The position numbers and the translations under genes were made by a program. Positions 3,213 to 16,217 of a stretch of 32,000 nt of DNA are shown here, one piece after another. The stretch lies in contig JAWKIT010000004.1 of assembly GCA_041394165.1 (NCBI GenBank), forward strand, positions 212,502 through 244,501, given 5' to 3'. The stretch comes from Acidimicrobiales bacterium. Its GTDB lineage: Bacteria > Actinomycetota > Acidimicrobiia > Acidimicrobiales > Iamiaceae. The notes beneath the pieces were generated by a model that ran no database searches, was not told the origin of the DNA, and saw only the letters and a program-made list of their open reading frames with translations. How positions within the stretch are numbered: the first letter of the stretch is position 1; each line of letters begins with the position of its first letter.

Positions 3213-6200
3213 ATGGGCGCCATGACCGACGGGGTGGGGACCGAGCGGGCGATCCGGGTGTTCGTGTCGTCCACCTTCCGCGACATGCAGGCCGAGCGCG
3301 AGGAGCTGGTCAAGCGGGTGTTCCCGCTGGTGCGGCGCCGCTGCGAGGAGCGCGGCGTCGGCTGGTCGGAGGTCGACCTCCGGTGGGGCGTCACCGACGA
3401 GCAGAAGGCCGAGGGCGCCGTCCTCCCCATCTGCCTCGCGGAGATCGACCGCAGCCGCCCGTTCTTCCTCGGCCTGCTCGGCCGCCGCTACGGCTGGGTG
3501 CCCGAGGAGCTGCCCGACGACCTCGCCGACCACCTGCCCTGGCTGCGCGAGCTCGACGGCACCTCGGTCACCGAGATGGAGGTGCTCCACGGCGTCCTCA
3601 ACGATCCCGACGCGGCCGGCCACGCCTTCTTCCACCTGCTCGTCGACGACGGCGCCCCCGACGCCGAGGAGACGCCGGAGGCGACGGCGAAGCAGGCCGC
3701 GCTGAAGGACCGCGTGCGCGCCTCGGGCCATCCCTGGGCCGACTACGCGTCGCCCGCCGAGCTCGGCGAACAGGTCCTCGGCGAGCTCCTCGCCCTCGTC
3801 GACCGGCTGTTCCCCGAGGACGACGCGCCGGACGTCGCCGCGCGCGACGCCGCCGCCCACCGCGCCTACGGGGCGGCCCGGCGCGCCGGCCACATCGACC
3901 GACCGGCGCTGCGAGGGCGCCTCGACCAGCACCTCGCCGGCGACGGACCGCCGCTGCTGCTCGCGGCGGAGGCGGGCGCGGACCTCACCCCGCTCGTCGC
4001 GTCGTGGGCACCGGAGGGCGCCGTCGTGCACCACGTGGGGGCGACGTCGGACGCCGCCGACTGGCGGAACCTGGCGGGCCGGCTCACGATCGCCCTCACC
4101 GTCGCGGCGGGCGGCGAACCGCCCGACCCGGCCACGCTGCCCGACGATGCCGTTGCCGGCGCCGCGCGCCGTTGTTCGGCGCGATCGAGCGCTTCGGGGC
4201 GAGATTTGGGCTCAGCTCGCCGTCGTCGTCGACGGGTGCGAGCTGCTGCTCGACGTCGACGGGGCTCCCGACCTGACCTGGCTTCCGCTCCAGGTACCGG
4301 CGGGCCTGCGCCTCGTGCTCACGAGCGCGTCGAGCCGGACCACCGACGAGGTCCTGCGCCGGGGCTGGGCGGTGGCCGAGGTCCCGCCGCTCGACGATGC
4401 CGAGCGGCGGGCGTTCATCGCCTCGTTCCTCGGCCGCTGGTCGAAGGGCCTCGACCGCGTCCACGTCGATCGCCTGGCCGCCGCGCCCCAGACGGGCACC
4501 CCGCTGTTCCTGCGCACCGTCCTCGACGAGCTGCGCCAGCACGGCGACCACTTCACCCTGGGCGAGGTCATCGAGCGGTACCTCTCGGCCCGGACGGTCG
4601 ATGACCTGCTCGAGCAGGTGCTCGAGCGCTACGAGCGGGACTTCGAGCGCGACCGCCCCGGGCTGGTCCGCGACGCGATGACCGCGGTGTGGGCCGCTCG
4701 TCGAGGCCTCGCCGAACCGGAGCTGCTCGACCTCCTCGCGTCGGGCGACGACCCGCTGCCCGGGGCGATCTGGTCGCCGCTGGTGCTCGCCGCCGAGGAC
4801 GGGCTGGTCACCCGCTCGGGCCTGCTCGGGTTCGCGACCCCGCTCCACCGCCGGGCGGTGGAGGACCGCTACCTGGCCGGCGAGGGCCAGCGCCAGGCCG
4901 CGCACGCTCGTCTGGCCTCCCACTTCGCGTCGCAGCCGCTCGGCCCGCGGGTGGTCGAGGAGCTGCCCTGGGCCCAGCTCGCCGCCGGCGACGTCGACGG
5001 GCTCGTGCGCACGATCGGCGACCTTGGGTACCTGGCGATCGCCTACCCCCACGCGCCACGCGACCTCCGAACGCTGTGGGCTCGGGCGTCGGAGGCGGGC
5101 CGCTCGGTCGTCGACGCGTACCGGCCGGTCCTCGACGACCCGGCCGCGCACCCCGACGCCGCGTGGGCGGTGGCCCGCCTGGTCACCGATGCGGGCCACC
5201 CGACCGAGGCCCTCGCCCTCAACCGGTTCCTCGTCGAGCACCACCGAGCGGAGGCTGCCGCCGGCGTCGAGCGAGGCGCCGCCCGCCTGCGGGGCTCGCT
5301 GCTGAACCTGGGCGCCGCCCTCTGGCTGCAGGGCGACCTGCTGGGGGCCGAGCCACCCCTGCGGGAGGCGATCGAGCTGGCCCGCGGCGCGGGCGACGAG
5401 GTCGTGCTGCGCGCCGCGCTCGGCAACCTCGGCCTCGCCCTCCGCGACCGCGGCGACCTCGACGGTGCGCTCCCCCTCCTCGAGGAGGAGGCGACGCGCA
5501 GCCGGGCGGCGGGCGACCTGGCCGAGCTGCAGGCCAGCCTCGGCAACCGGGCCGGGCTGCTGCGCCAGCGGGGCCGCTTCGCCGACGCCCGAGCGCTGAT
5601 GGCCGAGCAGGAGGCGATCGCGCGCGGCACGGGCGATGCCCAGGGCGTCGCCGCCGCGCTGGTGGGCCAGGCCACCGTGGCCGCCGACACCGGCGATCCG
5701 CTCGGCGCCCTGGCCGCCTTCGAGGCCTACCGGGCGTGGGCGGCCGAGGCCGGCGACCTCCACGCCGAGACCGAGGCGCTCGTGAACCTGTCGAACACGC
5801 TCCGGCAGGTGGGCCGACACGACGAGGGCGCGGCGCGGGCCGAGGAAGCCGAGGCCCTGGCCCGGCGCACCGACGACGGTGCCCTGCTCGCCCGGGTGCT
5901 CGACGGCCGGGCCCGCATCGCCTCCGAGCAGGGCCGGTGGCCGGAGGTCGAGCGGCTGGCCGCCGAGGCCGCCCTCACCGCCCGCGCGGCCGCCGCGCCC
6001 GCCGCCCTCGTGCTCGCCCTCGGCAGCCTGGGGACGGCTCGGCGCGAGCTCGGGAACCTGCCCGGCGCCACCGAGGCGGCCCAGGAGGAGCTCGCCGTGG
6101 CCCAGCAGCTCGGCGACCCCGCCGCGGTGGCCACCGCGCAGGTGAACCTGGGCAACGTGGCCATCGCGTCGAACGACCTGCGAGGCGCCCTCGCCTGGTA

Positions 6201-6891
6201 CGGCGCGGCCGAGCCGCCCCTGCGCGAGCGCGGCCTGGCCATGGTGCTCGTGCCCCTCCTCAACAACCGGTGGCAGGTGCACGCCGCCCTCGGCGACCAC
6301 GTGTCGGCCGCCACCGACCTGGCCGCGTGCACCCACCAGTGCGTCCTGGCCGGCGCCTGGCAGCAGGCGCTCCAGGTCGGCGCGCAGGCGATCCAGCACC
6401 TGCACGGCACCGGTCGCCCCGGCGAGGCCGGGCCCGTGCTGGAGGACCTCGCCACGGCTGCCCGCGCCCTGGGCGACGACGCATCGCTCCAGCAGGCGCT
6501 CGGCGACCACGCCCTGCTGGTGATGGGCCAGGGCGACGGGGCCCGGGCGGCGGCCCTCCTCGACGAGCAGGAGCGCATCTGCCGGCGCATCGGCCACCAG
6601 GTCGGTCTGGCCGCGTGCATCGGCAACCGGGCCATCCTGAAGCGCCAGCAGGGCGACCTGCCCGGCGCGCTGGCCGACGTCGAGGAGCAGCTCCGCATCG
6701 CCCAGGCGGCGGGCGACGGCCAGGGCGTGCTGTTCGCCACGGCCAACCGAGGCGAGCTGCTCGGTGCGCTGGGCCGCACGGAGGAGGCGCGCCGCGACCT
6801 CGAGTGGGCGCGCCAGGTCGCCGCGCAGAACGGGCTCGCACCGATGGCCCAGCAGCTCGACCAGATGATCGCCGCCCTGCGCGACCGCTGA
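3213..6891 (+). pseudogene. DUF4062 / NACHT-like STAND (degenerate P-loop) / TPR-array protein, frame-disrupted as sequenced
   Basis: Two ORFs join into one protein.
- Frame of 2700..4604 from ATG 3213: MGAMTDGVGTERAIRVFVSSTFRDMQAEREELVKRVFP...VDLRWGVTDEQ...LLGRRYGWVP (DUF4062 hallmark), then ...PPLLLAAEAGADLTPLVASWA...VVHHVGATSDAADW.
- Frame of 4147..6891: ...QLAVVVDGCELLLDVDGAPDLTWLP...RLVLTSAS...AAAPQTGTPLFLRTVLDELRQHGDH..., followed by about 12 TPR-like 40-aa units.
The frame switch lies somewhere in 4140-4215. The length 3679 nt is not a multiple of 3. Confidence 0.8.
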
Positions 6892-6895
6892 ACGG

Positions 6896-7405
6896 CTACC
6901 CGCGGTCGTGCAGGTGCTCGGCGGTGGTTCCGCCGATCTCCATCGGGTCCATGCCCAGCTTGCGGTGGTCCCAGGAGCGCAGCCGCTCGGTCCGCACCCG
7001 CACGGCGACGCGGTTGTGGAGCATGAACTCGACGAGGGGCTTGACCTCCTCGGAGTACGGGCCGTTGTAGCGCTCCCACACCTGCACGCCGACCTGCCAG
7101 AGGGCGTCGGCGTCGTCGACGATCTCGGCGGTGCCCTCGACGGCGACGCCGCGCAGCGAGTCGTAGGTCTCGCCGTCCTCGACCAGCACGGTGATTCGGG
7201 GATCGCGGCGCAGGTTCACGGCCTTCTGCGACTTGGCCTTCGTCTCGAACCAGATCGCGCCGTCGACCAGGCCGTACCACATCGCCACGGCGTGGGGGTG
7301 GCCGCTGGGGCCGTTGGTGACCATGATCGCCGTCCGGCTCTGCTCGAGGTACTCGACGATCTCGTCGTCGCTCATCTCGATCGTCTTGCGCTGGTTCGAA
7401 CCCAT
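6896..7405 (-). CDS. PPOX-class (pyridoxamine 5'-phosphate oxidase-like, probably F420/FMN-dependent) protein
   Basis: Last 169 aa of ORF 6896..8386(-), from ATG 7405: MGSNQRKTIEMSDDEIVEYLEQSRTAIMVTNGPSGHPHAVAMWYGLVDGAIWFETKAKSQKAVNLRRDPRITVLVEDGETYDSLRGVAVEGTAEIV. This is the typical split-barrel PPOX pattern. Confidence 0.8.
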   Translation of the reverse strand: MGSNQRKTIEMSDDEIVEYLEQSRTAIMVTNGPSGHPHAVAMWYGLVDGAIWFETKAKSQKAVNLRRDPRITVLVEDGETYDSLRGVAVEGTAEIVDDADALWQVGVQVWERYNGPYSEEVKPLVEFMLHNRVAVRVRTERLRSWDHRKLGMDPMEIGGTTAEHLHDRG

Positions 7406-7522
7406 GGCGCCGGACCCTACATTTCTCGGAAAAGTCCGCGCCGGGCGTCGATCGAGCAGGATCCCGTTCGTCGTCAGGGTGAGGACCGGCACCGAGTCGG
7501 CCCCGAACGAAGGGATCCAGCC

Positions 7523-7885
7523 ATGACCCAGTACCTCCTCTCCGTGCACTACGTCGACGGCCAGGGCGCCACCCCGCCCGAGGACATGCAGGCCGCGTTC
7601 GAGGCGGTGGACCGCTTCAACCAGAAGCTGCAGGACACCGGCGCCTGGGTGTTCGCCGGCGGCCTCGAGACGCCCGACACCTCGACCGTGGTGGACGCCA
7701 CCGGCCCAGAGGTGCTCACCACCGATGGCCCGTTCTCGGAGGCCAAGGAGCAGATCGGCGGCTTCTGGGTGATCGAGGCCCCCGACCTCGACGCCGCCCT
7801 CGCCCTCGCCACGGAGGGCTCGGCCGCCTGCCGAGGCCCCGTCGAGGTGCGCCCGTTCCAGTCCGAGCCGCCCGCCGCCGACTGA
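7523..7885 (+). CDS. YCII-related / DGPF-domain protein
   Basis: ATG 7523 is preceded by GAAGGGA. The 120-aa product is [13 protein letters not shown]...[33 protein letters not shown], containing the DGPF motif. The stop at 7883-7885 is one base before the sigma-factor start. Confidence 0.85.
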
Positions 7886-7886
7886 C

Positions 7887-9107
7887 GTGCCCGAGCGCCT
7901 CGCGCCCGGCGACCTCGACCGGATCTTCCGGCAGGAGTCGGGCCGCTGCCTCGCCACCCTGGTGCGCGTCCTCGGGAGCATCGAGCTCGCCGAGGACGCG
8001 CTCCAGGAGGCGGTCGTGGTCGCCCTCGCCACCTGGCCCGAGCGGGGCACGCCGCCGAACCCGGGTGCGTGGCTCACCACGACCGCCCGGAACCGGGCGA
8101 TCGACCGCATCCGACGCGAGTCCACCCGAGGCGAGCGCGAGGCCGAGGCCACGACGATGCTCGACCACGACGAGCCCCACGAGGTCTGGCCGGTCGCCGA
8201 CGACCAGCTCCGCCTCGTCTTCACCTGCTGCCACCCGGCCCTCGCCCCCGAGGCCCGGGTGGCCCTCACCCTCCGGCTGATCGCCGGGCTGCAGACCCCC
8301 GAGATCGCCGCCAGCTTCCTGGTGCCGGAGGCCACCATGGCCCAGCGCCTGGTCCGAGCCAAGAAGAAGATCCGCACCGCCAACATCCCCTACCGGGTGC
8401 CCGGGAGCGCGGAGCTGCCCGACCGCCTCCGGTCGGTGCTCGCGGTGATCTACCTCGTCTTCAACGAGGGCCACCGGGCCACGTCGGGCGAGGAGCTCGT
8501 GCGAGCCGACCTCTGCGACGAGGCCCTCCGGCTGGCGCGCCTGCTGGTGGACCTCATGCCCGACGAGCCCGAAGCCCTCGGCCTCCTGGCGCTGCTGCTG
8601 CTCACCGACGCCCGCCGCCGCACCCGCACCGACGCGGCGGGCGACCTCGTGCTCCTGGCCGACCAGGATCGCACCCGGTGGGACCGGGCCCAGATCGACG
8701 AGGGCCACGAGCTCGTCCGACGCTGCCTGCGGCGCGACCAGCCCGGTCCGTACCAGCTGCAGGCGGCCATCGCCGCCGTGCACGCCGACGCGGCGCGCGC
8801 CGAGGACACGGACTGGCCCCAGATCGTCGCACTGTACGACCACCTGCTGCGCCTGGCCCCCACGCCCGTGGTGCGCCTCAACCGGGCGGTGGCCGTCGCC
8901 GAGGTGGCGGGCCCCGACGCCGGGCTGGAGGCCCTCGACGGGGTGGACCTGGCGGGCTACGCGCCGTTCCACGCGACGCGGGCCGACCTGCTGCGCCGGG
9001 CCGGGCGCGCGGCGGAGGCCGTCGCGGCCTACGACGCCGCCATCGCGGCCGCCACGGCGCCCGCCGAGGTGCGGTTCCTCAGGGCGCGCCGGGCGTCGAT
9101 CGCCTGA
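7887..9107 (+). CDS. ECF42-type RNA polymerase sigma factor with C-terminal TPR-like extension
   Basis: ORF 7887..9107 with a GTG start.
- Sigma2-like region: [45 protein letters not shown]
- Sigma4-like region: [39 protein letters not shown]
- Then about 230 aa of helical extension.
It lies immediately downstream of a DGPF gene, the known ECF42 context. Confidence 0.85.
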
Positions 9108-10801
9108 CCGGCTCGAAGCCGTTGCACGCCAGCATCGCCTGGAGGTTGCGGGCGCTCTCGAGGTTGCTCGCCCGCCCCTCCGGCGTCAGCTCGCCCCACG
9201 GCCGCACGAAGGGGTTCTCCTTCTTGGCCTCGACCTTGTCGGGCCCGTAGGTCCACCCCTGCGCCTCGCGCATCGCCCGCCAGCGCTCGTGCTCCGCCTC
9301 GGCGAGGGCGTCGATGTCGACCGACGTCAGCTCGGTCTGCGGGGCGCCCCACCGCTGGAGCGGCACCAGGTCGCACCCGATGGCGTCGAGCTGGGCGATG
9401 ATCCCGTCGACCCGGGCCCGGCTGTCCTCGCGCTCCTCGTCGCTCAGCTCGATCCACGGCCGAGCCAAGCTCGACGGCGGGGCGTCGGGAGCCCGCTGGG
9501 CGAGGTAGTCCTCGTGCACCGCCTCCGCCAGCTGCTCCCGCACGCCGCCCTCGATGGTGGCGGGCGTGCAGGACCGCTCCAGGAACGGGAACCGGACGAT
9601 CCCGGGGAACGCCCCGCCCGCCCCGTCGTCGAGCAGGGCGCCGAGCCCACCCGAGGTCCGCGTGCGCACCACGATCGGCACCTCCTCGGGGAGGCGCTGG
9701 TGCAGGAACATGGCGTGGGCGATCGCCCTCGGCTCCTCCGCGAACACCGCCGCCACCCGCCGGCGGGTCCTCGGCGAGCAGGGCGGTGAAGCCCTGCACC
9801 TCCTCAGGATCAGGCGCGTCGAGGTCGAGGTCGACGAGGGTCGGCTCGCACACCTCGCCGAGCGCCGGGTGCTGGAGGCGCAGCGCCTCCCAGCGGCCCC
9901 GCGCCGCCCGGTCGACGACGGTGGGATAGAGCTTGGTGCCGGGGTGCAGGTCGGCCCACTGCTGGCAGAGGGCCAGCAGCAGGCTGCGCCCGAACCGCCC
10001 CATGCTCATCACCATCAGGTGGGGCGGCTGGTCGCCGGAGAGGTCGGGGCCGTGCGCCGACAGGAGGGCCCGGGCGCCACGCTCGTGCAAGCTGAACCAG
10101 CTGGTGCGCACGGCGCTCGACGCGTCGAGGTCGGTGGCCCGCAGGAGCACGGCGAGCTCGGCGTCGGTGAGCTGCACCGCGCAGCGCACGGGCGCGGCTC
10201 GCTTCGAGGTCGAGGCGGCAGCCGCGATCGCCTGGACGATCTCGACGTTGGCGGCGTCGTCGCCGCTGACGACGACGATCCGCGAGGCCCCGGCGAGGCC
10301 GGCCTCGTGGAGGGCCGCGGGATCGGCGGCGCTGGCCTCCACGATGTGGTCGAGGCGGTCCGAGAGCCCGGCGGCCGACGCGACGGGCGCCGACGGCTCG
10401 ATGGCGACCACCCGTTCGCCCGCCTCGAGGTAGGCGCTGGCGACGCGGGTGCCGGTCTCGCCGAGGCCGCACACGATCGTGTGGCCCGACGAGCGGGCGG
10501 AGCGGAGCCGGTCGAGCTCGCGGCGGAACACCACGGTGGCGCTCTGCAGCACGGTGGAGGCGGCCAGGATCGGGACCACGAAGCGGGCGAGCTGCAGCTG
10601 CCAGTTCATGGGCCCCGAGCTGCCGCTGTAGTCGAGCGTGGCCAGCTGGAGGGTCAGGTAGAGGTTGTCGAGGAACGTGCGCTCGATGTCGTCGGCCGAG
10701 CCCTGCTTCACGAAGCCGGTGATGCCGATGACCAGGATCACCAGCCACAGGACCGCGAGGGCCCACCAGCGGAAGCGGGCGCTGCGCAGCCACCGCTTCA
10801 C
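9079..10801 (-). pseudogene. K-channel-like 2TM / TrkA-N (RCK) / second Rossmann-like / double RyR-domain protein, one frame disruption as sequenced
   Basis: - N-terminal part, in the frame of ORF 9029..10801 (GTG 10801): MKRWLRSARFRWWALAVLWLVILVIGITGFV...FLDNLYLTLQLATLDYSGSSGP...LARFVVPILAASTVL...GHTIVCGLGETGTRVASAYLEAGERVVAIE...
- C-terminal part, in the frame of ORF 9079..9756: VAAVFAEEPRAIAHAMFL...LAEAVHEDYL...PWIELSDEERE...LAEAEHERWRAMREAQGWTYGPDKVEAKKENPFVRPWGELTPEG (RyR repeats).
The frame switch is at about 9757-9770. The length 1723 nt equals 3n+1. Confidence 0.8.
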
Positions 10802-11277
10802 GGCGCGCGCTCCACGTCGACCACCTCGACGGGCCGACCGCGCCGCCGGGCCTCGGCCACCAGGTCCGCGGTGCCGCCCCGCCCCCGACCGGGCCCGCCG
10901 TCCCAGAGCGCGACGAGCACGTCGGCGCCCTCGAGCACGGCCAGCCCGGCGCGCTCGTAGGCCGCCTCGCGGGAGCCGTCGTCGTCGGGGGGTGGAGCGA
11001 TCACCCTCACCTCGTCGGCCGCGTCGAGCAGTTCGTTGAACTCCTCGACCGAGGCCCCGTCGCCGAAGTCGGCGGCGTACTCGGCGGGCTCGAGCGGGAG
11101 CAGGGCGACCAACCGGCCGGCCGGCCGGTCGAGCACGGCCCGGGCCACCAGCCGGTCGGCCCCCTCGGCCAGGCTCGACACGGCGGTGAGGGGCGGGTCG
11201 AGGCGATCGAGCACCGCGTCGACCGACGCGCGCACGCCGGCGGGGTCGGCCAGCGACCGGTGCCCCGTGACCCCCAC
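10798..11277 (-). CDS. small SLOG / LOG-DprA-like (or N-deoxyribosyltransferase-like) Rossmann-fold protein
   Basis: Tail of ORF 10798..12549(-): VGVTGHRSLADPAGVRASVDAVLDRLDPPLTAVSSLAEGADRLVARAVLDRPAGRLVALLPLEPAEYAADF...AYERAGLAVLEGADVLVALWDGGPGRGRGGTADLVAEARRRGRPVEVV. The order b-strand/GxR, AEGAD, LP...Y, then D-hhhAhhDG...GGT...A...G.PV mirrors LOG/DprA/TIGR00725-type proteins. The start is ambiguous: GTG 11277 is chosen, and in-frame GTG 11310 is the alternative. The stop TGA overlaps the GTG of the channel gene (GTGA at 10798-10801). Confidence 0.6.
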   Translation of the reverse strand: MGVTGHRSLADPAGVRASVDAVLDRLDPPLTAVSSLAEGADRLVARAVLDRPAGRLVALLPLEPAEYAADFGDGASVEEFNELLDAADEVRVIAPPPDDDGSREAAYERAGLAVLEGADVLVALWDGGPGRGRGGTADLVAEARRRGRPVEVVDVERAP

Positions 11278-11290
11278 CCGAGAACGGCGA

Positions 11291-11319
11291 CTGCCGCCCG
11301 CGTCTCCCACGGGCGGCAG
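11291..11319 (-). terminator. GC-rich hairpin downstream of the ADH gene (possible terminator or attenuator)
   Basis: CTGCCGCCCG-9 nt-CGGGCGGCAG is a perfect 10-bp stem, 45 nt after the ADH stop (11364). On the minus strand it is followed only by a weak T-containing tract (tcgccgttct). Confidence 0.35.
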
Positions 11320-11363
11320 TCTGCCAGGGCTGGTGGCGGCCGGCTCGGGGCCGGCGCGATCGG

Positions 11364-12443
11364 TCAGAAGGTGATGACCGTGCGGATGACCTCGCCGCGC
11401 TTCATGGCGTCGAAGGCATCGTTGATCTCGTCGATCTTCATGCGCTTGGAGATCATGCCCTCGAGGTCGAGCTGGCCGGCCTTCCAGAGCGCCAGCAGGC
11501 GGTGGAAGTCCGAGCGGACGTCGACCGAGCCGTAGTAGCTGCCCATGAACGTCTTCTCGGAGAAGAAGATCTCGAACCCGTTGAACGAGACCTCCTGGTC
11601 CATCTTGCCGACGCCGATGATGACCGCGGTGCCGCCGCGGCGGATGGCGTCGTAGGCGGCTCGCATGGTCACGGGGAGCCCGATCGCCTCGAACGCGTAG
11701 TCGAAGCCGTCGCCGGTGAGCTCGGCCTGGAGGGCGGGCAGGTCGTCGGGGGTGCAGGCGTGGGTGGCGCCGAACTGCTTGGCGAGCTCGTGCTTGCCCT
11801 CGTTCAGGTCGACGGCGACGATCACGGCCGCGCCGGCCACGCGGGCACCCTGGATCGCCGCGACGCCCACGCCGCCCGCACCGAACACGACCACCTTGGA
11901 GCCGGGCTCGACCTTGGCCGTGTTGATCACCGCGCCGACGCCGGTGGAGACGCCGCAGCCGATGAGCGACGCGATCTCGAAGGGCACGTCGTCGTCGATC
12001 TTGATGGCTGCCTCCTGGGGCAGCGTCAGGTACTCGGCGAAGGTGCCGGTGCCGGCCATGCCGAAGACCGGCTCGCCGTTGCGGGTGAAGCGGGGCAGCC
12101 CGGCGATGGCGAACTGGATCATCACGCACAGGTGCGGCTGCTTGCGCTCGATGCAGTTGTTGCACTTGCCGCACGGCGGGCTCCAGGCCACGACGACGTG
12201 GTCGCCCTCGGCGAGGCCCTCGACGCCCTCGCCCACGGCGGTGACGACGCCGGCACCCTCGTGGCCGGGCACGAACGGCGCCCCCTGGGGCAGCGAGCCC
12301 TGCATGGCGTGGAGGTCCGAGTGGCACACGCCCGTGGCCTCGATCTTGACGGTGACCTCGCCCGGGCCGGGCGGGGCGATCTCGATGTCGTCGACGACCT
12401 CGAGCTTCTCGTCGCCGGTCTGGTGCAGCAGCGCAGCGCGCAT
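11364..12443 (-). CDS. zinc-dependent alcohol dehydrogenase (MDR family)
   Basis: ORF 11364..12443(-), 359 aa. It carries GVCHSDLH and PGHEGAGVV zinc-site motifs, the structural-Zn segment CGKCNNCIERKQPHLC, and NAD motif VVFGAGGVGVAAIQ. GAGGAG lies 6 nt upstream of the ATG. Confidence 0.9.
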   Translation of the reverse strand: MRAALLHQTGDEKLEVVDDIEIAPPGPGEVTVKIEATGVCHSDLHAMQGSLPQGAPFVPGHEGAGVVTAVGEGVEGLAEGDHVVVAWSPPCGKCNNCIERKQPHLCVMIQFAIAGLPRFTRNGEPVFGMAGTGTFAEYLTLPQEAAIKIDDDVPFEIASLIGCGVSTGVGAVINTAKVEPGSKVVVFGAGGVGVAAIQGARVAGAAVIVAVDLNEGKHELAKQFGATHACTPDDLPALQAELTGDGFDYAFEAIGLPVTMRAAYDAIRRGGTAVIIGVGKMDQEVSFNGFEIFFSEKTFMGSYYGSVDVRSDFHRLLALWKAGQLDLEGMISKRMKIDEINDAFDAMKRGEVIRTVITF

Positions 12444-14931: not shown

Positions 14932-16217
14932 TCAGCGGAAGAGGGCCTCGCCGACGTAGCCACCGCGCGCCGGCACCCCGGGCGGGACGGCGAAGAGGCC
15001 CGAGCCGGTGTGCTGGAGGTACTCGCTCATCGCGTCGTCGCGCGCCAGGCGGGTCTGCATCGGCACGTACTGGCGCGCCGGGTCGCGGACGTAGGCGAGG
15101 AAGAACAGCCCGGCATCGAGGCGACCGAGGCCGTCGGACCCGTCGGTGAAGTTGTAGCCCCGGCGCAGCAGGGCGGCGCCCTCGTTCTGGTCGGGGTGCG
15201 CGAGGTGCACGTGGGAGGAGGTCGGGATCAGGGGCTCGCCATCGGTGCCGGTGGCGGCGAAGTCGGGGGTTGCGTGCTCGTCGCCGCCCGAGAGGGGCGC
15301 GCCGGCGCCCTTCGTCCGCCCGATCACCGCCTCCTGCTCCTGGAGCGAGGTGCGGTCCCAGGTCTCGATGTGCATGCTGATGCGTCGGGCCACCAGGTAG
15401 CTGCCGCCTGCGAGCCAGGCGGCCCGATCGTCGTCGGCCCTGTCGACCCACACGTGGCGATCGAGCATCTCCTGCTCCTCCGCCTTGAGGTTCGCGGTGC
15501 CGTCCTTGAACCCGAACAGGTTGCGCGGCGTCTGCTGCGACGTCGACGTGGACGAGGTCCGCCCGAAGCCGAGCTGGCTCCAGCGGACGCTCGCCGCGCC
15601 GAAGCCGATCCGGGCGAGGTTGCGCACCGCGTGCACGGCGACCTGCGGGTCGTCGGCGCACGCCTGGACGCAGAGGTCGCCGCCGCTTCGCGCGTCGTCG
15701 AGCTGGTCGCCCGGGAAGTGGGGCAGCTCGATCAGGCGCTCCGGGAGGCGATCGGCGAGGCCGAAGCGGTCGACGCCCTCGGCGGTCTGGAAGAGGCTGC
15801 GGCCGAGCCCGAAGGTGATCGTGAGGCGCGACGGCGGGAGGTCGAGCGCCTCGCCGGTGTCGTCGGGGGCGCCGCGTACGCCGTCGACCGCTCCCCGGGC
15901 CCGGCCGGGCGCCCCTCGGTCATCCGGGCGGCAGCATCGGTCCAGGCCCGGAGGAGGTCGACGAGCTCGTCGCGGTCGGACGTGATCACGTCGAAGGCGG
16001 CGAAGTGGAGGCGGTCCTGGGCCGGCGTGGCGATGCCCGCCTGGTGGGCACCGTGGAACGCCACCGGCTCGTCGGACGACGGAGCGGTCGAGCGATCCTC
16101 GGGCGCCGAGGCCCGACCGAGCGCCACGCCCGACGCCCCGGCCACGCCGGCGGTGACGACCCCGGCACCGGCGAGGCCGAGCAGCCGACGGCGCGACACC
16201 GCGGGCGCGCCGCTCAC
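14932..16217 (-). pseudogene. efeB: Dyp-type peroxidase EfeB (Tat-exported), one frame disruption as sequenced
   Basis: - N-terminus, in the frame of ORF 15732..17312, from GTG 16217 (GTGA overlap with the efeO stop): VSGAPAVSRRRLLGLAGAGVV... (twin-arginine signal) ...FHGAHQAGIATPAQDRLHFAAFDV...AARMTEGRPAG.
- The rest, in the frame of ORF 14932..16269: ...DDTGEALDLPPSRLTITFGLG...FGFKDGTANL (the DyP GxxDG motif)...HVHLAHP.
The frame switch is at about 15885-15912, in runs of C/G. The length is 1286 nt (3n+2). Confidence 0.85.

Follow-up and report, generated by a model that had tools for sequence, protein, structure and literature searches.

A candidate Thoeris-like module of SLOG, RCK/RyR channel-like and DUF4062 genes in an Acidimicrobiales genome

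We analysed a stretch of 32,000 nucleotides (nt) from an Acidimicrobiales bacterium (Actinomycetota; Acidimicrobiia; Iamiaceae; GenBank assembly GCA_041394165.1, contig JAWKIT010000004.1, positions 212,502 to 244,501 of the forward strand), here called the window, with a G+C content of 70-79%. An earlier reading of this DNA, made from its letters and open reading frames (ORFs) and here called the sequence-only reading, had singled out two overlapping genes encoding a small SLOG-like protein and a larger channel-like protein with ryanodine receptor (RyR) repeats. We observed both genes on the minus strand, and found a probable third component of the same system, a gene for a DUF4062 protein, on the plus strand nearby.

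A SLOG-fold gene overlapping a channel-like gene

The minus strand of the window contains a trio of genes consisting of a zinc-type alcohol dehydrogenase gene (end 11364), then the small SLOG gene (10798-11310), then the channel-like gene (9079-10801). The ORF of the small gene encodes 170 amino acids (aa) from a GTG start at 11310, or 159 aa from a GTG at 11277, the latter being NCBI's call. We favoured the start at 11310 because an N-terminal 'GDAGG' stretch is kept in relatives of 60-73% identity. The exact match to this protein in NCBI was a 'hypothetical protein' (R2702_09440) from an Acidimicrobiales metagenome-assembled genome (MAG). The stop codon of the small gene (TGA, 10800-10798) and the start codon of the channel-like gene (GTG, 10801-10799) share a GTGA overlap at 10798-10801 of the minus strand, and a GGAG was observed about 9 nt upstream of that GTG, within the small gene. 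The overlap and the internal GGAG together form a classical translational-coupling layout. A promoter and terminator scan of 8900-11600 detected nothing and is uninformative at 75% GC.

At least 688 homologues of the small protein were found, a few of them with a precomputed match to Pfam YAcAr (PF10686). In an alignment of 71 homologues, 23 residues were invariant, and these clustered in the motifs G-x-T-G-H-R, L-A-E-G-A-D-R, L-P...Y..D-F, R-E-A-A-Y, A-L-W-D-G and G-R-G-G-T. The window protein contains all three SLOG-type loops (G-V-T-G-H-R, S-L-A-E-G-A-D-R and G-R-G-G-T-A-D) on columns that are invariant or nearly so among the 71 sequences. We take these loops to be equivalent to motifs of DprA and LOG, namely the glycine-rich loop, the SxAxGxD-type motif and the GGxGT-type motif. 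The AlphaFold2 model showed a Rossmann-like fold of six beta-alpha units, with a mean predicted local distance difference test score (pLDDT) of 96.1 and a predicted template-modelling score (pTM) of 0.90. Foldseek against the PDB returned YpsA as the best match (2nx2, E 1.3e-6, template-modelling score 0.72), together with DprA (3uqz, E 1.4e-4), a molybdenum cofactor carrier protein (6y01), a type-II LOG (5zi9) and, weakly, ThsA, all of which are SLOG-superfamily proteins. Pfam YAcAr itself reached the window protein at a sub-threshold 13.8 bits (cut-off 28.2, E 0.051). As modelled, the small protein is a SLOG-fold protein on the YpsA-like side of the superfamily, in the YpsA/DprA-like clade. 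TraI and GAPDH, which appeared in a profile search of PDB sequences, had insignificant scores and were dismissed as chance matches. A LOG-type cytokinin-activating enzyme was also rejected, the best folds being YpsA and DprA and the exact PGGxGTxxE motif being missing.

The channel-like gene encodes a protein of 573 aa once its reading frame is repaired at a break described below. Its best homologue (P0121, 574 aa) was 91% identical over 100% coverage. At least 193 homologues were found, the 120 listed being 530-614 aa long with 91-100% coverage, and a profile of the channel matched 2,821 cluster representatives (50% identity) at E<=1e-30. Database names for these homologues include 'NAD-binding protein' and 'voltage-gated potassium channel Kch'. 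The AlphaFold2 model (pLDDT 89.2, pTM 0.82) contained a transmembrane part followed by two Rossmann-type domains (aa ~105-250 and 262-410) and a helical C-terminal domain. The first Rossmann domain, with a GLGETG motif (10052-10489, minus strand), was identified as RCK1 by Pfam TrkA_N (PF02254; aa 109-201, E 4e-15, 56.6 bits against a cut-off of 23.8) and by the PDB entries of TrkA (4j9u) and GsuK (4gx0). The second, an RCK-like domain (9565-10030, minus strand) that holds the frame break, was recognised by the beta-alpha pattern of the model at 262-410 and by Foldseek, whose alignments to TrkA and GsuK, both of them tandem-RCK proteins, spanned about 400 columns. These two proteins were the top matches (E ~3e-8 to 1e-7) and included the GsuK entries with bound NAD or ADP (4gx2, 4gx1); MthK came next, and then Repeat12 of human RyR3. 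NCBIfam models gave only sub-threshold TrkA and Kch scores for the RCK part.

Two RyR repeats were observed in the C-terminal domain. The second (9103-9321, minus strand) is canonical, with the pattern HERW...GWTYG...NPFVRPW, and matched Pfam RyR (PF02026) at aa 496-562 (E 7.6e-12, 45.8 bits against a cut-off of 27.4). The first (9358-9546, minus strand; aa 421-480) is degenerate, with an HEDY motif and without the GWTYG hairpin, and was recognised by hhalign and Foldseek. It aligned to the second repeat in hhalign at a probability of 94% (E 1.4e-7), and the reading of a double RyR module therefore holds. The tandem was superposed on RyR3 Repeat12 by Foldseek over 175-195 columns (template-modelling score by target ~0.56), and a profile search of the PDB returned RyR1/2/3 at E ~1e-31 and a Bacteroides RyR-like protein (3nrt) at E 1.7e-14. 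H504, W507, W516 and W535 were invariant in the RyR repeat of the channel family. The HxxW pair H504/W507 is spaced like the ligand-contacting H75/W78 of the phage RyR-domain protein RyDEP, a likeness in spacing. Among the 148 channel representatives that scored best, about 16 were longer, at 700-800 aa; examples of 730-776 aa (P0366, P0367, P0371, P0375, P0392) gave profile matches in two stretches and contained no SLOG domain. The 150-200 residues by which they exceed the others may form further RyR repeats.

The N-terminal module (10502-10801, minus strand) was modelled as TM1, a pore-helix-like helix, a filter loop and TM2, with helices at aa 8-36, 43-53 and 67-91 and the loop TLDYSGSSGP at 54-66 (pLDDT 66-86 in the monomer). 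We could not establish its relation to ion channels by profile searches of the module itself. Pfam Ion_trans_2 did not match the large protein, and hhalign of the module against the pores of KcsA, MthK, NaK and NavAb gave probabilities of 0.5-3.6%, with NavAb at 3.6%. A PDB profile search returned K2P channels as the best match at E 0.29, in another register that set TM1 opposite the K2P pore helix and filter; we dismissed this register because AlphaFold2 models a single long helix at aa 8-36. In hhalign against a canonical actinobacterial Ion_trans_2+TrkA_N family, the module alone scored a probability of 2.7% (E 0.017) and the full-length channel profile one of 97.6% (E 3e-12). The latter alignment was collinear; it began at the end of TM1, took in the pore helix, filter position and TM2, and passed on into RCK1, with A-T-L-D-Y-(S)-G set against S-T-T-G-Y-G. 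With full-length GsuK, Foldseek aligned 505-594 columns, and with shorter chains of 375-376 residues from the same entries it aligned 423-434. Because of the collinear full-length alignment, the modelled topology and the GsuK and MthK fold matches, the most economical reading of the module is a derived tetrameric cation-channel pore.

The filter of this putative pore differs from that of potassium channels. The K+ signature T-[VI]-G-[YF]-G-D was absent, the window protein having T-L-D-Y-S-G and the channel family the consensus T-L-[DENQH]-[YSG]-(S)-G. In distant channel homologues (L080 2038-3825, L033 1344-3161 and others; aa ~50-60) we observed T-L-E-S-G or T-M-E-S-G. T-L-E-S-G resembles the T-L-E-S-W filter of bacterial sodium channels, a likeness that we regard as a lead rather than a test. 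A canonical Ion_trans_2+TrkA_N potassium channel with TTGYGD (369 aa) was observed in Nocardioides sp. URHA0020 (L010 2791-3900), about 6 kb upstream of the three genes there; it is probably unrelated to the system and served as an internal comparison.

Much of the sequence-only reading was borne out by these results. Its pair of about 159 and 573 aa with the GTGA overlap is present, its small-protein motifs (GVTGHR, SSLAEGADRL, LPLEPAEY, ALWDG...GGTADLV) were all found, on invariant or nearly invariant columns of the 71 sequences, and its assignment of the small protein to a SLOG/LOG-DprA-like fold agrees with the model and with the YpsA, DprA, molybdenum cofactor carrier and LOG matches. The order it had proposed for the large protein (two transmembrane helices, RCK, a second Rossmann domain, double RyR) is that of a GsuK/MthK-type protein with an added RyR tandem, and TLDYSG does stand in place of the K+ filter. 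For the potassium-channel layout of the N-terminus, the order of helices was recovered by AlphaFold2 and the homology to potassium channels was not independently significant by sequence. Likewise, two of the three Pfam families it had named for the repaired protein, TrkA_N and RyR, were found, and Ion_trans_2 was not.

The DUF4062 gene and the conserved neighbourhood

A gene at 3213-6891 of the plus strand is a probable third component of the system; its product, of about 1,222 aa, combines a DUF4062 domain with a NACHT-like module and TPR repeats. The gene was located by tblastn with a Nocardioides orthologue, which aligned at 61-66% identity to 3231-4208 in frame +3 (aa 3-329) and to 4222-6879 in frame +1 (aa 330-1220). 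Pfam on this orthologue returned DUF4062 (PF13271; E 1.2e-12, 48.3 bits against a cut-off of 24.7), which is a domain distinct from Pfam TIR, together with TPR_12 (E 1.4e-28) and a weak NACHT match. The core motifs FVSSTF, DLRWGV and SVTEMEVLHG of the DUF4062 domain are unbroken in the window copy, including, by sequence and alignment, the acidic motif S-V-T-E-M-E (3564-3581, plus strand), the region of the putative catalytic Glu. In the NACHT-like module the Walker A position (residues ~250-265) reads EAGADLTP or GxxGxDLT in the window's clade, with the lysine lost (L005, L007-L010), and the Walker B (VVVDG) is retained. More distant members keep the Walker A GxGK[ST] (L031, L038, L069, L047, L084, L073, L068), and intermediate forms were observed in L014, L018 and L046. 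The sequence of this module suggests that in the window's clade it may be a pseudo-NTPase STAND module.

In the window the DUF4062 gene lies 2.2 kb from the channel-like gene, with three genes between them. This interval (6896-9107) contains a PNPOx-like gene (minus strand), a YCII gene (plus strand) and a gene for an extracytoplasmic function (ECF)-type sigma factor with DUF6596 (plus strand; 7887-9107, 406 aa), whose 3' end overlaps that of the convergent channel-like gene by 29 nt. The interval genes are confined to the window's lineage, where the same insertion of sigma factor, YCII and PNPOx-like genes was found in L001-L004 and L008.

To assess conservation we scanned one genome per species for relatives of the small protein. 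At least 410 loci were returned, from Actinomycetota, Acidobacteriota, Chloroflexota, Ignavibacteriota, Bacteroidota, Planctomycetota, Desulfobacterota, Armatimonadota and other phyla, and we analysed the best 80. The counts below come from naive ORF calls, hidden Markov models built for the analysis and best-scoring loci, and are indicative rather than a formal enrichment test. On contigs with close and with distant homologues of the small protein we observed a channel gene directly downstream, plus a DUF4062/TPR gene of about 1,220-1,230 aa. The 4-nt overlap of the SLOG and channel genes was also present in L001-L006, and relatives had an unbroken channel gene for 569-574 aa. Within the clade closest to the window, which spans two actinobacterial classes, most relatives contained the convergent DUF4062 gene of about 1,220 aa directly after the pair. 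A convergent DUF4062-TPR gene adjoined the channel gene in eleven loci (L005-L007, L009, L010, L012, L018, L031, L038, L040, L046) and lay within about 0.8 kb of it in L014, and in Nocardioides szechwanensis it was convergent with the channel gene and overlapped its end. Identities to the Nocardioides orthologues were alike for all three proteins, at 64%, 54% and 61-66%, the last being the DUF4062 protein.

A standalone SLOG gene was observed in 49 of the 80 loci, with an RyR-domain gene nearby in 41 of the 49, and the channel was present in 30 of the 80. Full 10-kb flanks were available for 44 loci; of these, 12 of the 15 with the channel also contained DUF4062, as did 5 of the 29 without it. 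In the remaining 31 of the 80 loci SLOG was fused to about 360 C-terminal residues with weak matches to SLATT_1, SLATT_3 or DUF4231. Such SLOG-SLATT-like proteins, with an N-terminal SLOG and about 540-650 aa, were found in L055 (6235-12906), L057 (212-1849; SLATT_1) and L015 (9815-11776). In L055, a Geobacter MAG, the fusion was flanked by a TIR-NB-ARC-TPR protein (1,041 aa), a 197-aa protein and a TPR-S protein. Fusions joining members of the system were also observed, including SLOG followed by channel (P0380, 816 aa), channel followed by SLOG (L023 8183-10546, 787 aa), and an X-AAA-RyR protein followed by SLOG (L076 7223-10546). DUF4062-NACHT-WD40 and DUF4062-NACHT-TPR proteins were present among the related loci, and the gene order in L073 was X-AAA-RyR protein, SLOG, channel and DUF4062-NACHT-WD40.

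In several phyla the gene immediately upstream of a standalone SLOG gene encoded a recurrent protein of about 880-945 aa (L073 7290-9995, L013 7359-9992, L017 7152-9989, L026 7284-9995, L062 2922-5585, L077 7331-9976). It contains an N-terminal domain of about 400 aa without a Pfam match (GDVTxDWN, GGAALL, SWERTAQD), followed by an AAA+ module (GAPGSGKSF, WDEFD) and then two RyR repeats.

Proposed mechanism and its alternatives

Several of the domains observed here have been linked to signals derived from nicotinamide adenine dinucleotide (NAD+). Two preprints from 2026 describe DUF4062 as a TIR-like NADase that converts NAD+ to ADP-ribose (ADPR) and nicotinamide in anti-phage defence, in the systems Swarozyc and Evangelion. 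Another 2026 preprint reports that the phage RyR-domain proteins (RyDEP) bind 2'/3' cyclic ADPR (2'/3'cADPR) and in one case cleave it; RyDEP is homologous to the RyR R12 domain, and its ligand-contacting His and Trp are conserved across PF02026. Repeat12 of RyR3 binds adenine nucleotides. A 2025 preprint on Thoeris includes systems of TIR with SLATT (type VII, with cADPR as signal) and of TIR with an ion channel (type X). The SLOG domain of the Thoeris effector ThsA binds 3'cADPR, the YpsA-like SLOG clade has been connected with cADPR sensing, and structures of GsuK were determined with bound NAD or ADP. DUF4062, SLOG and the R12 repeat of RyR, each recently tied to NAD+-derived immune signals, are here encoded with a channel-like protein.

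Our best reading is that the module is an undescribed variant within the TIR-SLOG and Thoeris-like systems. We give roughly even odds (a probability of about 0.5) to a three-gene Thoeris-like module in which a nucleotide signal derived from NAD+ gates a cation channel that is not selective for K+. In this scheme the TPR/STAND protein would sense an invader or stress and oligomerise, switching on its DUF4062 domain, which would convert NAD+ to ADPR or an ADPR-derived nucleotide. The ligand would be bound at the cytoplasmic face of the channel by the SLOG subunit, by the RyR and RCK domains, or by both. Because translation of SLOG and of the channel would be coupled, the SLOG protein would probably partner the cytoplasmic gating ring in stoichiometric amounts. 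Binding would open a pore without K+ selectivity which, ringed at the filter position by Asp or Glu, may pass Na+ or Ca2+. Depolarisation of the membrane would then lead to growth arrest or dormancy, or to cell death (abortive infection). Alternatively, the SLOG or RyR domain may process or end the signal.

The sequence-only reading had proposed a signalling or conflict role through membrane depolarisation, and this remains the best reading. The conservation of the pair as neighbours, on which that reading depended, is borne out by the survey, both in the overlap and in the 41 of 49 standalone SLOG genes with an RyR-domain gene nearby. Two other statements of the sequence-only reading have to be revised: the pair was regarded as a two-component unit apart from its surroundings, and has a DUF4062-NACHT-like-TPR partner gene 2.2 kb away; it was said to fit no characterised system, and the module is built like Thoeris and other TIR-SLOG systems.

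Several points weigh against the scheme proposed above. We infer the functions of the module's members from domains, linkage and fusions, and the homology of the transmembrane module to ion channels is not proven by sequence alone, where it is without independent significance. The characterised DUF4062 proteins are single genes that act as NAD+-depleting effectors in abortive infection, not as producers of a signal. In the window's clade the loss of the Walker A lysine means that nucleotide-driven activation of the STAND module may not apply. The window locus lies outside any recognisable defence island, a setting that the sequence-only reading had raised. Its neighbours are housekeeping or catabolic genes (alcohol dehydrogenase and acyl-CoA synthetase here, ispG/dxr in Nocardioides), and its synteny is stable across Acidimicrobiia. 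Among viral contigs we found one distant SLOG (32% identity) and no channel, none of the system was found among INPHARED phages, and PLSDB plasmids gave partial matches below 32% identity and no full-length copy. PADLOC run on the small, large and partner proteins matched no model save a generic TPR. Finally, two of the three module genes are frameshifted in the window copy.

The frame of the channel-like gene switches between 9766 and 9756, at a G-rich run (9756-9765, minus strand) located by three-frame translation and by DNA alignment with L001-L004, and removal of one G from the GGG at 9756-9758 restores the 573-aa protein. Compared with three relatives of about 90% identity the window is short by 2 nt, equivalent to +1; the relatives have CCGCCGGTGTGGGTGGCG at this point and the window has CCGCCGGCGGGTGGCG. 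The sequence-only reading had placed a 1-nt disruption near 9757-9770, which was right as to position, the net change relative to kin being -2. The relatives encode PPVWVA at the break, the protein motif of the kin being EDPPxWVA, and both their channel gene (574 aa) and their DUF4062 gene are intact. The window's DUF4062 gene apparently has two breaks, at ~4160 and at ~4205-4213. We also observed a Dyp/EfeB-type peroxidase gene (14932-16110, minus strand) split in two frames at ~15880-15906, with a GGGG/CCC/GGGG run at the junction; one frame contains the N-terminus with a twin-arginine signal (SRRRLLGLAG...FHGAHQAGI) and the other the C-terminal part (APDDTGEALDL...). The window therefore contains four indels, one in the channel-like gene, two in the DUF4062 gene and one in the peroxidase gene, all in sequence rich in G/C runs.

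We think it probable that these indels are assembly errors rather than a sign of pseudogenisation, because an unrelated peroxidase gene is also hit, because the indels lie in G/C runs, and because the coding bias is undiminished. The competing view, that the breaks in the channel and DUF4062 genes are real and the module here is a decaying relic, non-functional in this genome, draws on the clustering of three of the four indels within the 5.4 kb of these two genes and on the intact genes of relatives about 90% identical. We hold it to be doubtful, since the fourth indel lies in the peroxidase gene and all four in homopolymer-rich stretches, since a plot of G+C at third codon positions gave a coding signal of 0.94-1.0 on both sides of the channel break with no accumulation of in-frame stops, and since a contig of 376 kb is typical of long-read MAG assemblies. 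The channel gene is similarly fragmented in another MAG, where it was observed in at least four overlapping ORFs (L040 10414-12327), which suggests that frameshift errors are common in such high-GC MAG assemblies. Two further possibilities were rejected: programmed frameshifting at 9756-9765, the relatives being in frame and similar indels being present in other genes, and additional frameshifts at 24.6-27.9 kb, where translation gave separate intact genes.

In an unlikely alternative to the gated-channel scheme, the DUF4062-STAND protein would deplete NAD+ as an effector complete in itself, in the manner of Swarozyc and Evangelion, and the SLOG/RyR-channel pair would have no dedicated gating signal. 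The pair would then be a second effector, responding to ADPR or to the fall in NAD+, or a brake in which the RyR domain or SLOG hydrolyses or sequesters ADPR-type molecules and so limits self-damage. Known DUF4062 proteins do act alone, yielding ADPR and nicotinamide in abortive infection, RyDEP is a glycosidase or sponge for cADPR isomers, and the RCK domains of GsuK bind NAD and ADP (4gx2, 4gx1). However, a mere brake would have no need of a membrane channel, and the fusion of the same SLOG subfamily to pore-forming SLATT effectors, the tight operon and the channel fusions all point to an effector role. Least likely of all is a purely physiological role, in which the pair would form a ligand-gated cation channel like Kch, GsuK or MthK with an accessory nucleotide-binding subunit, serving ion homeostasis or NAD/NADH redox sensing beside a DUF4062-STAND gene of no significance. 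The database names ('NAD-binding protein', Kch), the stable synteny, the housekeeping context and the lack of mobile-element association fit this view. Against it, DUF4062/TIR STAND genes recur beside the pair in unrelated phyla and in varied gene orders, SLOG proteins of this subfamily also occur as SLATT fusions, the filter lacks the K+ signature, and the family is patchy over many phyla.

A more specific version of the gated-channel scheme can be put forward tentatively. The nucleotide made by the TIR-like enzyme might directly gate a tetrameric channel through the RyR Repeat12-type domain and the SLOG subunit, which would make the module a prokaryotic counterpart, and possibly the evolutionary source, of the animal cADPR-RyR and ADPR-TRPM2 pairings; it would also provide a simple way to ask whether R12 domains act on channels as receptors of the cADPR type. 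If the gated-channel scheme as a whole holds, the module would add a widespread membrane-depolarising effector type to TIR-type immunity, give a function to the cellular RyR-domain proteins of bacteria, and offer a small, tractable channel for the long-debated link between cADPR and RyR-type domains. A system-level name could supersede the present annotations 'NAD-binding protein' and 'hypothetical protein'. For experiments the intact orthologues of Nocardioides szechwanensis and Aquihabitans sp. McL0605 are preferable to the window copy.

Comparison with known systems

In the literature searched, which included the DUF4062, RyDEP and Thoeris preprints, the combination of genes observed here was not described and no relevant paper named both SLOG and RyR, though Burroughs et al. 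2015 (SLOG/SLATT) may mention the association. RyR, TrkA and DUF4062 are not mentioned in the Thoeris survey or its tables, nor are RyR, SLOG, TrkA and TPR in the Swarozyc and Evangelion preprints.

The channel-like protein resembles GsuK, MthK and Kch in the modelled succession of two transmembrane helices around a pore-helix-like element, followed by RCK domains (Foldseek E 5e-8 for GsuK and 3.5e-6 for MthK). It differs from these at the filter position, where T-x-G-Y-G-D is replaced by T-L-D-Y-S-G and in distant kin by T-L-E-S-G, and in its additional RyR tandem and obligatory SLOG partner gene. A SLOG-like domain, MHR1/2, is also found on TRPM2, an ADPR-gated cation channel; the parallel is an analogy, and the channel-like protein has no sequence relationship to the TRP pore. 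In the animal RyR the RyR domain is likewise part of a channel, but the pore module there is unrelated in size and architecture. With RyDEP and RyR R12 the tandem has in common the PF02026 repeat, the H-x-x-W pair and a two-fold symmetric R12-like arrangement. RyDEP, however, is a small soluble viral anti-defence homodimer, whereas the tandem observed here, with its degenerate first repeat, ends a putative membrane-channel protein of the host. SLOG-SLATT proteins belong to the same SLOG subfamily as the small protein, which differs in being free-standing and in having an RCK/RyR channel as its membrane partner.

The DUF4062 protein resembles Swarozyc, Evangelion and the TEP1/NWD1/NPHP3-like DUF4062-NACHT-repeat proteins, all of which have an N-terminal DUF4062 core with FVSSTF and S-x-T...E followed by auxiliary sensor regions. 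Swarozyc and Evangelion are single genes, whereas here a DUF4062-STAND gene is linked to SLOG and channel genes, and the window's clade differs from its DUF4062-NACHT relatives in having lost the Walker A lysine.

Thoeris provides the closest comparison for the module as a whole. In Thoeris a TIR protein is combined with an effector (type I, ThsB TIR with ThsA SIR2-SLOG; types VII and X as above), and the module shares with it a predicted NAD+-consuming TIR-type domain beside a putative nucleotide-sensing or membrane-pore effector. It has no ThsB-type TIR protein. The corresponding DUF4062 domain belongs instead to a protein of about 1,220 aa that continues with a STAND-like module and TPR repeats, a class of architecture that the Thoeris survey set aside. 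SLOG is fused to the effector in Thoeris but is a separate small protein here, and the effector here would be an RCK-gated channel with two transmembrane helices and an RyR tandem. Some related loci nevertheless contain a true TIR-NB-ARC-TPR protein. As in Thoeris, the effector genes, here the putative ones for SLOG and the RyR/RCK channel, lie next to or near the predicted NADase gene, and by analogy the predicted outcome of the two systems, abortive infection, would be alike.

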